Translations under genes and position numbers: made by a program
Source: a virus
DNA length: 38,393 nt
Direction: 5' to 3' (one strand)
Virus record (IMG/VR): IMGVR_UViG_3300045988_107305
Location: 1-38,393 of that record
Part shown: one piece after another, positions 2,292 to 38,393 of the stretch
How the letters are laid out: each line of letters begins with the position of its first letter
How positions within the stretch are numbered: the stretch's first letter is position 1
The notes under the pieces: generated by a model
What the model was told of the DNA's origin: nothing
What the model saw: the letters and a program-made list of their open reading frames with translations, nothing else
Database searches by the model: none

Positions 2292-2801
2292 TCAAACTCC
2301 AAACTTCTTAATCAAATCAGCCTGTATTTTTTTCTTGGTAAGCTCTGTAAGCTCATAATCCTTTTTTCTTTGCTCTTCAAAAGACACAAAATCCGCCTGC
2401 CCACCATCAGGCAAAGGCGGTTTTGGGTCGTCCTTTTCTTTTTCTTTTTCTTTTATATTATTTATACTTATATTATTCTCTTTAAAATCTTTTTTAATCG
2501 TCGGTTCAAAATTTTTTAAATCGTCGGTTAAAATATTTTTTAATCGTATTTTGCGCTCAATAATTTCACAACCTCGCTTGGTGTAATTTATTTCAATGTA
2601 ATTTTTGTCGCATAATTTTCTTAATTTTGTGGATATTGAAACTTCCGTACAATCAAACATATCGGCAAAGTATTTATTACCTGCGTAACAATATCCTAGT
2701 TTTGCACATAAATTCGAGATTAACAAAAGAAGCTGGATTTCGTTTTTTATATCCTTGTCTAAAATCCATTCTTTGTAACAGATTGCATAACCATTGTTCA
2801 T
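2292..2801 (-). CDS. putative replication initiation / replisome-organizer-like protein (winged-helix N-terminus, K/E-rich C-terminus)
   Basis: AAGGAG RBS; genomic context between RusA and DnaA-like genes; weak motif resemblance only. Confidence 0.35.
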   Translation of the reverse strand: MNNGYAICYKEWILDKDIKNEIQLLLLISNLCAKLGYCYAGNKYFADMFDCTEVSISTKLRKLCDKNYIEINYTKRGCEIIERKIRLKNILTDDLKNFEPTIKKDFKENNISINNIKEKEKEKDDPKPPLPDGGQADFVSFEEQRKKDYELTELTKKKIQADLIKKFGV

Positions 2802-34295: not shown

Positions 34296-35192
34296 TTAAA
34301 TCAAATCAAACAATGTCAATCTTTCTAGCTGATTGCAGTATAAATATTCAGTTATTTTATCGCTACACGCCCCACACATCAGCTTGCGCTTTTTTTCACT
34401 CCAAACTTTATAGAATCGTTTATCGCTGATTTCATAGCTTGAAAAGTAAACTTTATAAGGTCGGCTTGCTACCCAGTCATAGAATTCAGCGTGATTAAAG
34501 TCTTTTTTATCATAATTCTTCGTACCCTCATAAGGTGGGTCGCAATAAACAATATCACCGTCTTCATAAACATAGTCAAGATAAGAACCTTGTTTAACTT
34601 CCAGTCTTTCCAGTCTTTCCAGGCTTTGCAGTCTTTCCAGTCTTTCCAGGCTTTGCAGTCTTTCCAGTCTTTCCAGGCTTTGCAGTCTTTCCAGTCTTTC
34701 CAGGCTTTGCAGTCTTTCCAGGCACTTCCTTTTATATTCTTCTTTATTTTTTTGAATATCCCCCCGACTCCCGTCTGTTTTTATTCCAAATTCAGCAAAC
34801 AGGCTTGTATCACCCAAAACTCTTGCATAGTGCAACGCCTTTTTCCATGGCTCAATCTCTTTGGAGTATAAATAATTATTCCCAGCACAACTAAAGCTCC
34901 AGCAATACTTAATATAGCCGTCTTGTTCTTTGAGTTTGGAGAAATCTTCGCGGCTAATCCATCTTTTTTCATTCCGAAAATCGCCGTTTATCGCCTTTTT
35001 CATCAAATCAACTAACAAAGGATTGTATTCATTATAGAGAACCTTTTGCCACTTGCCCGATAATACCGCACAATGACTGATTGCACCACCTCCGCCAAAT
35101 AAGTCAACAAACCGCCGACCACTTGGTAAGACTTCAATAATCTTTTCAGAAATAGCATTCTTAGAGCCCTGATACGTTATCCCGTACTTCAT
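34296..35192 (-). CDS. DNA N6-adenine methyltransferase (Dam/D12 class) containing internal (LER-LER-LQS)n repeat insert
   Basis: N-terminal YQGSKNAISEKII, motif I DLFGGGGA, motif IV DPPY; 9/27-bp tandem repeat in frame. Confidence 0.85.
   Translation of the reverse strand: MKYGITYQGSKNAISEKIIEVLPSGRRFVDLFGGGGAISHCAVLSGKWQKVLYNEYNPLLVDLMKKAINGDFRNEKRWISREDFSKLKEQDGYIKYCWSFSCAGNNYLYSKEIEPWKKALHYARVLGDTSLFAEFGIKTDGSRGDIQKNKEEYKRKCLERLQSLERLERLQSLERLERLQSLERLERLQSLERLERLEVKQGSYLDYVYEDGDIVYCDPPYEGTKNYDKKDFNHAEFYDWVASRPYKVYFSSYEISDKRFYKVWSEKKRKLMCGACSDKITEYLYCNQLERLTLFDLI
34599..34724. repeat. in-frame tandem repeat inside Dam gene: 9-bp subunits tctttccag/gctttgcag arranged as 27-bp (AAB) units x4 plus extra copies
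   Basis: direct reading; encodes LERLQSLER repeated. Confidence 0.9.
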
Positions 35193-37197: not shown

Positions 37198-37617
37198 TCA
37201 AAATGGAATCCCATCATCTAAATCATCGTTATAAACTTCTTGCGGTTGCTCTGTCTCTTCCGTTTTAGGGTTAGCCGACTTCAAAACTTCAAATTGACTA
37301 TTCAGCCCGCTTAAAACAACCTCGGTAACATATACTTTGCGTCCGTCTTTTTCATAATTCCTTGTCTGCATTTTACCGCAAACATACACAAGGTCGCCTT
37401 TATGGCAATACCGCTCTATGTATTCCGACTTTGTGAACACAACAACCGGCACCCATTCAGTGCGCTCTTGCTTTTGCCCTTGAGCATCTTTCCACGATTC
37501 CGACACGGCAACAGTTAGGTTGACAACCTTAATTGCTGTTTGAGTATGTCTTACTTCCGGCTCTTTGCCGACACGCCCGATAATTTCAACTTTATTTAAC
37601 ATTTTATTTTTCCTCAA
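37198..37617 (-). CDS. ssb: single-stranded DNA-binding protein
   Basis: OB-fold-like N-terminus, acidic C-terminal tail ending DDLDDGIPF. Confidence 0.85.
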   Translation of the reverse strand: MRKNKMLNKVEIIGRVGKEPEVRHTQTAIKVVNLTVAVSESWKDAQGQKQERTEWVPVVVFTKSEYIERYCHKGDLVYVCGKMQTRNYEKDGRKVYVTEVVLSGLNSQFEVLKSANPKTEETEQPQEVYNDDLDDGIPF

Positions 37618-38393
37618 AAAATTGTTTTAATTTCTCATTTCCGAATTGTCCGCTTGTTAAGTCTATAATTTCCTTAACAGAATACTCCTTTTTCGTTTTT
37701 TTCAAAGAACTAACAAACTGTTTAGTTCCAAACTCACAAGCCCCGGTAATAATTCTATACATTTTAATAGCATCTTCTTTCGGTAAAACACTATCTAAAG
37801 TCAAATTATTAAACTGTGATGTATCTCTGTTTGAAATCTTATAAATCAAATCAGCTTTTGCTTGTTTTATAGTTTTTCCATGCGAATAATTCTCGCCATC
37901 AGTAACAATAAAACTTTCTTTTTTCGTAAAGTAGTCATTGAACGTAATAACTTTATAAACATTTTTCTTTTTTGCCAAAACTATCGCATCTATTTCATCG
38001 AAACATACAACTTCTTGAAACTTATGATTATAAAGACAATATCTTACATCTCCTTTAATTTTATCGCCATCAACAAATTCAGTTTTAACATAGTCAACAA
38101 CAATCATGCCATCTTCTCTTTTAAATTCTGCTAAAGTTATCCAATTTCCAACTTTGGCGGATACAGTGGAATATAATCCTATAGCGGATATGATAGAATT
38201 ATTACCAGTACAGTTGATTCGGGCGGAATTGCCTGAGCTACCAATTTGGGCGGAATTGCCTGAGCTACCAATTTTGGCGTAATTGCCTGAGCTACCAATT
38301 TTGGCGGAATCGCCTGAGCTACCAATTTGGGCGGAATTGCCTGAGCTACCAATTTTGGCGTAATTGCCTGAGCTACCAATTTTGGCGGAATCG
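37604..38393 (-). CDS. C-terminal part of junction-spanning tandem-repeat protein (repeats 38226..38393, C-terminal 200-aa domain 37604..38220)
   Basis: frame giving GNSAQ IGSSGNSAK repeats is continuous with supplied ORF 37604..38107 (no stop between); the supplied ORF 38179..38379 is a different frame. Confidence 0.6.
   Translation of the reverse strand, partial: DSAKIGSSGNYAKIGSSGNSAQIGSSGDSAKIGSSGNYAKIGSSGNSAQIGSSGNSARINCTGNNSIISAIGLYSTVSAKVGNWITLAEFKREDGMIVVDYVKTEFVDGDKIKGDVRYCLYNHKFQEVVCFDEIDAIVLAKKKNVYKVITFNDYFTKKESFIVTDGENYSHGKTIKQAKADLIYKISNRDTSQFNNLTLDSVLPKEDAIKMYRIITGACEFGTKQFVSSLKKTKKEYSVKEIIDLTSGQFGNEKLKQFFEEK
38226..38393. repeat. 27-bp tandem repeat, about 6 copies, same family as 2..190; last 34 nt identical to first 34 nt of window
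   Basis: direct reading. Confidence 0.9.

Follow-up and report, generated by a model that had tools for sequence, protein, structure and literature searches.

The viral DNA analysed here, IMG/VR record IMGVR_UViG_3300045988_107305, is 38,393 nucleotides long and was examined over its whole length, hereafter the window. On its minus strand, at 34296–35192, lies a gene for an orphan N6-adenine DNA methyltransferase of the D12 class (alpha group), 298 amino acids (aa) long, and within this gene is an in-frame minisatellite that is the subject of this report. The class of the enzyme was assigned from the list of open reading frames (ORFs), Pfam, PHROG and the predicted fold of a homologue. The product matches the Pfam family PF02086 (MethyltransfD12) with an E-value of 4.8e-15 and 56.4 bits, against a cut-off of 22, and the PHROG family of DNA methyltransferases, phrog_56, with an E-value of 2.4e-41. 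Its N-terminal region, predicted from the translation to bind S-adenosylmethionine (AdoMet), spans 35085–35174 (minus strand) from the motif X-like YQGSKN to motif I, FGGGG (residues 32–36); the homologous region of protein P0010 aligns with residues 4–85 of T4 Dam. After the repeat come a strand and loop (KQGSYLDYVYEDGDIVYC) and the catalytic motif IV, DPPY (residues 218–221), which together occupy 34530–34595 (minus strand; DPPY at 34530–34541) and align with T4 Dam 157–183, FKDVKILDGDFVYVDPPY. The recognition region lies between the two motifs, the same order as in T4 Dam. P0010 is 92% identical to the window protein, and its AlphaFold2 (AF2) model (predicted local distance difference test, pLDDT, 69.7; 78 homologues aligned) indicates a Dam-like fold, the top matches in the PDB being E. 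coli Dam (EcoDam; 4rtl, E 6e-7, template-modelling score 0.49 on the target) and T4 Dam (1yfj).

The minisatellite occupies 34596–34721 on the minus strand and was delimited by Tandem Repeats Finder (TRF), translation, a table of its units and shuffles. It consists of 13 units CTG[G/C]AAAG[A/C] and a terminal CTGGAAGTT, 14 nine-base units in all, which encode (L-E/Q-R/S)13-LEV, residues 158–199, a stretch of 42 aa whose final LEV comes from the terminal CTGGAAGTT. Coding-strand translation of 34596–34727 gives KCLERLQSLERLERLQSLERLERLQSLERLERLQSLERLERLEV, running KC-LERLQSLERLERLQS...LERLEV. Read on the plus strand, the units are tctttccag and gctttgcag in the order AAB four times plus a final A, exactly as a preliminary description of this DNA had listed them. 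TRF returns 34599–34721 with period 9 (13.7 copies, 85% matches) and 34602–34721 with period 27 (4.4 copies, 100% identity, score 240); the top score in 100 shuffles of the window was 70. The translation and the Pfam match also sustain the central observation of the preliminary description, that a variable number tandem repeat (VNTR) is embedded in frame in a D12/alpha-class adenine methyltransferase, after the AdoMet motif and before DPPY.

That the repeat number varies is evident from relatives in which head-to-tail units differ in copy number between the same flanks. We compared pairs of proteins over 150 aa before and 100 aa after the tract. Among the 36 pairs with flanks at least 96% identical, the tract differed in 30 and its length in 29. 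Unequal unit counts were found even where the flanks were 100% identical (P0003 and P0035, 13 vs 9; P0095 and P0103, 7 vs 3), and the difference between P0050 and P0063 is a simple block deletion. The two closest metagenome relatives at the DNA level, L080 (91%) and L081 (87%), have 14 and 9 units respectively, of the same four unit types as the window. The preliminary description had proposed that repeat number be compared among related phages, and the outcome, in 30 of 36 close pairs and in L080 vs L081, is variation. We conclude that the tract evolves much faster than the surrounding gene. The polymorphism is not an artefact of assembly, because the lactococcal isolates described below are finished genomes.

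The tract is in frame in every homologue examined and its unit is 9 bp, a multiple of three; the suggestion that length changes would not turn the enzyme on and off is thus borne out, and a phase-variable on/off methyltransferase was rejected. As a separate observation, the truncated IMG/VR relatives (data set 3300045988) are broken at DPPY and not in the repeat: L032, L042, L043 and L049 have a stop after 'DPPL', and in L040, L041 and L047 the frame changes after 'DPP'. Homopolymer sequencing errors, an inserted element or genuine inactivation are possible causes of these interruptions.

The position of the tract within the enzyme was examined by alignment. The only PDB sequence matches of the close homologue are T4 Dam entries, its residues 4–90 corresponding to T4 Dam 4–85, and YLDYVYEDGDIVYCDPPY aligns with T4 Dam 157–174, a segment that ends with the DPPY of that 259-aa protein (171–174). 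The two aligned blocks are separated by ∼71 residues in T4 Dam, by 113 in the window protein and by 202 in P0010, whose AF2 model has a strand at 286–289 (LEVK) that begins at the last unit, LEV. The alignment places the tract at the C-terminal border of the target-recognition domain, extending up to the strand before DPPY. The preliminary description had put it inside that domain, which does not hold, because the ∼71 residues of T4 Dam are too few to accommodate a 42-aa tract. In the structures of T4 and E. coli Dam, the chain returns from the recognition to the catalytic domain by way of a short helix; as judged by alignment, the tract therefore fills the place of this helix.

The tract is far from peculiar to the window. 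Of the IMG/VR relatives, 73 were fetched (42–68% identity), and every one of them has an (L-x-x)n tract at the same position, with 4–23 units. Among the 120 best database protein matches, the tract could be scored in 118, all of which have it (3–21 units, median 10); P0119 in addition has only about two, and the range across the whole family is ∼2 to 23. The order of the LQS, LQR, LES and LER units is different in almost every one of the 118 scored proteins. The closest database proteins are 88–95% identical to the window protein and 366–415 aa long, with lengths that step by 3 aa, and they carry (L-[E/Q]-[S/R])n directly upstream of EVKQGSYLDYVY...DPPY. A search of 1.84 billion cluster representatives gave 2677 related clusters, of which 666 reached E ≤ 1e-30. 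The 149 best representatives share less than 50% identity with one another, and 132 of them have four or more hydrophobic-x-x units in the 45 aa that precede DPPY.

Cultured phages are represented as well. In Lactococcus phage 16W12L the tract reads LGQLQQLQRLQQLQRLQQLERLQQLDE, and the lactococcal version of the gene is present in 240 cultured phage records. All ten genes that we read from 936-type isolates have the tract, with 4 units in P680, 7 in phi15, 13 in RH6 and 19 in both phi93 and phi145. Lactobacillus phage Lc-Nu and Lauvirus lau218 have L/I-x-x stretches that are non-repetitive. A megablast search of half the window against cultured phages gave no match. The relatives come from human-gut and other metagenomes, and the metagenome-assembled genome (MAG) bins that contain them point to no consistent host taxon (Acutalibacteraceae, Treponema, Prevotella, Barnesiella); because the bins are taxonomically scattered, we regard host assignment by this route as unreliable. 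The idea of an insert special to one phage is not tenable in view of the 73 of 73 IMG/VR relatives and 132 of 149 clusters, and this distribution leads us to regard the L-x-x tract as ancestral to, and typical of, a large subfamily of phage D12 enzymes. We found no prior description of it in the literature searched, and full-text matches to peptides of the tract were noise.

What is maintained is the amino acid pattern. Leu stands first in 1121 of the 1134 units; the second position is Gln or Glu in 97% and the third Ser or Arg in 93%. The codons that specify this pattern form distinct dialects: CTG-[G/C]AA-AG[A/C] in the window lineage, CTG-[G/C]AA-AG[G/T] in a sister lineage, CTC-.AA-AGN in L069, CTG-CAA-[C/A]GC in L073, an 18-bp unit CTT GAA CGC CTA CAA AAT in the largest IMG/VR clade and CTT-[G/C]AA-C[A/G]A in the Lactococcus phages. 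In the clade L053–L062, a constant six-unit tract exists without any DNA repeat. Given these dialects, it is at the protein level that Leu at every third residue is kept, and comparison of the clades excludes a conserved DNA motif as a general explanation of the tract.

The same comparison speaks against the proposal that the array serves as DNA, as iterons or an origin, as a recombination hotspot for exchanging gene halves or as a cluster of the enzyme's own target sites, with the protein repeat as a by-product. Several properties of the window would suit such a role: synonymous sites of the unit are nearly invariant within its clade, the rare codon CTG is used throughout, the edge of the repeat is a deletion endpoint (below), and every CTGGAA unit contains CTGG, that is CCAG on the opposite strand, the motif linked to the lactococcal relatives. 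Nevertheless, the DNA of the units is completely different between clades while Leu-x-x is kept, one clade lacks a DNA repeat altogether, and the frame is preserved in every homologue examined. A target-site cluster fails as a general explanation, since the units of lactococcal and other clades contain neither CCAG nor CTGG. A recombination breakpoint is likewise unsupported, identity to L074 being 90.8% upstream and 93.7% downstream of the tract with no clear break, and a role in mRNA structure was rejected because the region is less structured than its shuffles (z = +2.25). We consider a DNA-level function very improbable. Within the window, CTGSAAAG occurs 16 times on the minus strand, 14 of them in the tract.

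Variation within the units is confined to particular nucleotides. For 130 units from the clade of the window, invariance is 96–97% at the synonymous nucleotides 3 and 6, and nucleotides 4 (Glu/Gln) and 9 (Arg/Ser) are freely dimorphic. We attribute the scarcity of synonymous variation to rapid concerted evolution. Mutagenesis of the kind mediated by diversity-generating retroelements (DGRs) was considered and rejected, as the variable sites are G/C at nucleotides 4 and 9 and the AAA run of the unit is invariant. TRF found no second copy of the array in the window that could act as a DGR template, although reverse transcriptase was not searched for. The net charge of the tract (mean −0.5, SD 2.2) is that expected if E and R assort independently.

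Taken together, these observations make it probable, in our view, that we are dealing with a conserved Leu-x-x connector encoded by a sequence that has become a hypermutable in-frame minisatellite, and that differences in its length are largely tolerated and do not act as a switch. The connector would most probably be a solvent-exposed helix or arm that returns from the target-recognition half of the enzyme to the catalytic sheet, and a short form of it would already have been present in the ancestor of the large phage D12 subfamily. As the connector is periodic at the protein level, its DNA would repeatedly have become a 9-bp (or 18- or 27-bp) minisatellite. Whole units would then be gained and lost in frame through replication slippage or single-strand annealing, and the annealing protein and single-stranded DNA-binding protein (SSB) of the phage may provide machinery of the kind that promotes gain and loss of short direct repeats. 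Through such gain and loss of units, tract length would far outpace the remainder of the gene in its rate of change. Above a few units, length would be weakly constrained, the enzyme remaining in frame and presumably active with the same core specificity.

The conformation of the connector is predicted with low confidence. AF2 applied to the single sequence of the window protein gave a poor model overall (pLDDT 41), which draws one helix through residues 143–196, and in the model of P0010 the tract has pLDDT 31–40 between confidently predicted flanking domains. The hydrophobic moment of the tract, calculated for the window protein and four distant relatives, peaks at 120 degrees (2.1–2.5), a period of 3.0, and is 0.15–0.6 at 100 degrees. 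A spectrum that peaks at 120 and is near zero at 100 degrees is not that of a classical amphipathic helix, nor that of a heptad coiled coil, which requires a period of 3.5. The preliminary description had allowed that homologues might show the segment to be a conserved, non-repetitive coiled coil; non-repetitive L/I-x-x stretches do occur, in lau218, Lc-Nu and the L053 clade, but the period of 3.0 is not that of a heptad. Unit counts show no period-6 pattern and no preference for multiples of six, which would keep helical phase, and the distal end of the tract is therefore probably not rigidly docked.

These properties bear on the possibility that the tract mediates oligomerisation, a Leu-rich, Glu/Gln/Arg-rich helix pairing with that of another subunit, its length free to vary since the partners are identical. 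The composition is typical of coiled-coil-like segments, single-sequence AF2 gives one long helix, and the tract is retained in every lineage, even where the neighbouring module has been lost. The moment spectrum speaks against pairing of this kind, a period of 3.0 presumably lying beyond what supercoiling can accommodate, as do the members with only 2–4 units. T4 Dam and EcoDam, moreover, act as monomers. We regard oligomerisation as clearly unlikely.

The chief competitor of a length-tolerant connector is a ruler or tuner, that is a contingency locus, in which each unit moves the helix by ∼4.5 Å and −60 degrees and so alters the geometry between the catalytic pocket and the recognition elements, which in the long forms would include the helix-turn-helix-like module described below. 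Specificity, site spacing, processivity or activity would change accordingly and variability would be favoured, in parallel with the TAEL repeats of the EcoR124I/II specificity subunit HsdS, where a single additional repeat turns GAAN6RTCG into GAAN7RTCG (PMC7383803). Consistent with a ruler, the tract lies between the recognition half and the catalytic strand, linking the two, and in the long forms it comes straight after an accessory module whose fold is predicted with confidence (below); its variable nucleotides are non-synonymous in several codon dialects, and unit order is unlike in nearly every homologue. A true helical ruler of the HsdS type, which separates two recognition domains reading a bipartite site, does not fit, since the window allele has one recognition region; in this allele, as in many natural short forms, there is no second DNA-binding module whose spacing could be set. 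Counts from ∼2 to 23 without phase periodicity and the low AF2 confidence, with no sign of a rigid rod, are also at odds with it.

Further evidence on this point comes from lactococcal phages. Murphy et al. sequenced phages Phi15, Phi93 and Phi145 by single-molecule real-time (SMRT) sequencing (PMC4190342). They assigned CC6mAG to M.Phi15I, an alpha-group enzyme of the replication module, and CY6mAG to M.Phi145II and M.Phi93II by similarity to M.Phi15I (PMC4190342); the CC6mAG assignment is repeated in a later survey (PMC4759559). In the published alignment figure the tract segment was cut out ('55/15' residues removed) and the repeat is unmentioned (PMC4190342). These enzymes of 936-type phages (Skunavirus) resemble the window enzyme in family (D12/alpha), motif order, location in the early/replication module and short architecture, and they too have an in-frame 9-bp VNTR, L-[E/Q]-[polar/Arg], directly before the strand that leads to DPPY, with 4–19 units. 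They differ in the DNA of the unit, CTT[G/C]AAC[A/G]A, and in having Gln/Arg at the third position where the window has Ser/Arg; their host is Lactococcus, whereas the window phage is from the gut, and their motif comes from SMRT data.

Identity to the window protein is 39% for M.Phi15I, which shares 87% identity with M.Phi145II and M.Phi93II and has 7 units where the latter two have 19, a difference of 36 residues. Both forms go with contiguous 4-bp motifs that are almost the same; tract length therefore seems to be tolerated, and this pairing is the strongest evidence for such tolerance at present. By analogy with these enzymes, the comparison argues against a large effect of length on specificity, and the almost unchanged short motifs count against a ruler. 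The looser CYAG of the 19-unit enzymes, vs CCAG for the 7-unit M.Phi15I, would suit a ruler and may be a weak hint that length modulates stringency. All in all, we consider a ruler unlikely.

Several observations sit uneasily with a length-tolerant connector and need to be set against it. Unit counts among the 118 scored proteins are centred on ∼10 and unevenly spread. The low pLDDT of the tract, and a period of 3.0 that fits no standard amphipathic helix, leave the proposed helix poorly defined. The comparison of M.Phi15I with M.Phi145II is unclean, since the motif of M.Phi145II was assigned by similarity without a cloned enzyme and the recognition hairpin also differs. The tract specifies each of its 14 Leu residues by CTG, a codon that accounts for only 4.7% of Leu codons elsewhere in the genome. 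Finally, in at least three codon dialects the variable nucleotides are those that toggle Glu/Gln and Arg/uncharged, and the recurrence of these dimorphisms, which is unexpected for a purely neutral linker, suggests selection on surface composition or possibly on variability. Apart from these considerations, the tract amounts to a run of rare codons at a domain boundary in a genome of 36.5% G+C.

If selection on variability were the explanation, the tract would be a contingency element common to hundreds of phage orphan methyltransferases, in which unit changes and the Glu/Gln and Arg/uncharged dimorphisms retune the enzyme; we think this improbable. Were it so, the breadth of specificity (CCAG vs CYAG), the reach of the accessory module or the recognition of a host factor might be retuned, and protective methylation would change quickly and reversibly without a change of frame. 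Tuning would then represent a new, in-frame form of variation in protective methylation, a single-chain counterpart of the HsdS TAEL ruler, and would be directly testable in the lactococcal enzymes, which have already been cloned.

The window allele has a second unusual property, the loss of an accessory module, which the preliminary description does not mention. All relatives 88–95% identical to it (366–415 aa) carry ∼100 aa between EEYKRKY and the tract, with the sequence YIGWYLKNVL...SGLKQSDI.RRLNTQMSGHWFGRSQWQFPTREFYNQMREF...YGYAELL. In the AF2 model of P0010, this module is predicted with confidence (pLDDT 86–91) as a small helical, helix-turn-helix-like domain; no Pfam family was found for it. 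A MAFFT alignment with L074 (P0010) and L075 (P0044) places the deletion junction, at which ∼300 bp are missing, at Lys156–Cys157 (34722–34727, minus strand). Relative to the DNA of L074, the deletion is clean and in frame, ...GAATATAAAAGGAAGT|GCCTGGAAAGA, with its right end inside the repeat array; the Cys codon TGC at the junction is made of the T of TAT and the GC of an AGC repeat codon. P0044/L075 and the group P0081/P0087/P0103/P0110 have other, independent in-frame deletions of all or part of the module, which also end at the tract, making at least three independent deletions, the window's included, that each end at the 5′ edge of the Leu-x-x array. Because independent deletions end there, the edge of the repeat seems to promote the loss of adjoining DNA. 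In terms of the connector, the edge would have mediated loss of the ∼100-aa module and a return to the basal short architecture of the lactococcal phage enzymes. The resulting arrangement, EEYKRK-C-(Lxx)n, mirrors the natural short form ETYKRSIEKNKT-(Lxx)n of lactococcal 16W12L, and because of this likeness to natural short enzymes the window protein is plausibly active.

We also considered that this particular allele, the perfect 27-bp × 4.4 array, the 300-bp deletion or both, arose in short-read assembly. The deletion allele is a singleton, one member on one contig, and was not found elsewhere among the protein database matches, in IMG/VR or in scans of metagenomes and genomes; furthermore, the contig itself breaks inside another 27-bp repeat. 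The exact copy number of a perfect 27-bp periodicity extending over 120 bp cannot be checked in a metagenome contig, and reads are needed for it. Against an artefact, the junction is clean and in frame and restores a naturally occurring architecture, the array spans no more than ∼123 bp, and VNTR alleles of similar size are present in finished genomes of cultured phages. We see only a slight chance that the allele is artefactual.

The target of the window enzyme can be approached from the composition of the genome. GATC occurs at 2 sites in the 38.4 kb of the window, where ∼100 are expected per strand (observed/expected 0.02). GGCC occurs at 3 sites (0.04) and CATG at a ratio of 0.25, while CCAG is not avoided (0.96). 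The avoidance of GATC, GGCC and CATG suggests strong pressure from restriction systems with such sites. Because GATC is almost absent, and purging this site would bring little to a phage that methylates it, the enzyme is probably not a GATC-specific Dam. The preliminary description had labelled it Dam; the label stands as regards the D12 family and the Dam-like fold, but is doubtful in its GATC sense, given the 2 sites and the link of the nearest characterised relatives to CCAG/CYAG (PMC4190342). T4 Dam and E. coli Dam share with the window enzyme the order of AdoMet motif, recognition domain and DPPY, and the N-terminal 85 residues and the pre-DPPY strand align; T4 Dam, however, has no L-x-x tract, and both enzymes are of the GATC type.

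Other known systems resemble the tract in part. The TAEL repeats that distinguish EcoR124I from EcoR124II are likewise in-frame amino acid repeats in a helical connector whose copy number differs between alleles (PMC7383803). They reside, however, in a separate specificity subunit with two recognition domains, have a 4-aa unit in 2 vs 3 copies and a demonstrated N6/N7 effect, whereas the window enzyme is a single chain with a 3-aa unit, ∼2 to 23 copies across its family and no second recognition domain. The mod and hsd genes of phasevarions also have hypermutable simple repeats inside a methyltransferase gene, but those repeats shift the frame and turn expression on and off, unlike a 9-bp unit that is in frame in every allele seen. 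A stiff spacer like the ER/K-type single alpha-helix is conceivable by analogy, as LER units place Glu and Arg four residues apart and L, E, Q and R favour helix; many alleles, however, are poor in charges, being mostly LQS or LQQ, and AF2 assigns the tract low confidence.

If the connector is indeed tolerant of length, strains of gut and dairy phages could be typed by the tract as a natural VNTR marker. The tract would also be a predictable source of assembly breaks and of apparent length 'errors' in methyltransferase annotation. Furthermore, it would mark a permissive site between the recognition and catalytic halves that accepts tens of extra residues and could be useful for fusions.

All large ORFs of the window are on the minus strand, and the methyltransferase gene lies in the early/replication module. 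In the syntenic L074, Pfam identifies an Erf-type annealing protein, Gp157, SSB and DUF968, followed by small genes, the methyltransferase, more small genes and the terminase; the window counterparts of the replication genes were identified by synteny and length rather than by direct Pfam matches.

A second 27-bp minisatellite noted in the preliminary description is real and lies in frame in another ORF. TRF finds it on the minus strand at 3–195 and 38222–38393, with the unit AATCGCCTGAGCTACCAATTTTGGCGG in at least 13 copies (93–94% matches). The repeats encode (D/N)SA(K/Q)IGSSG and belong to an ORF of ∼350 aa, which begins near 296 (minus strand) and ends at 37604, between the Gp157-like and SSB genes, and has only low-complexity matches (collagen, tail fibre). 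The ends of the contig share a 34-bp exact overlap. Because this minisatellite runs off both ends, the assembly is either circular or broken inside the repeat. A third, smaller element is a 23-bp direct repeat, TTAAAATATTTTTTAATCGTCGG (2.9 copies, 86% matches), at 2482–2547 in the ORF at 2292–2801 (minus strand), adjoining a T-rich stretch.

Two relatives have further features of their own. At 2995–5079 of L045 (IMG/VR UViG_3300045988_167937), the homologous methyltransferase is 695 aa long and has an intein-like insert of ∼320 aa directly before DPPY, with a LAGLIDADG domain (PF14528, E 1.6e-10) and the boundaries …VVYC|…NQ|CDPPY; two other long representatives, P0121 (687 aa) and P0226 (768 aa), may be built in the same way. 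L075 (ENA contig VATA22-2 scaffold_165) has, besides the D12 enzyme, three more methyltransferase genes of PF01555 (N4/N6) and a Tad2-like gene, and on account of these its early region appears to be heavy in anti-restriction and anti-defence functions.

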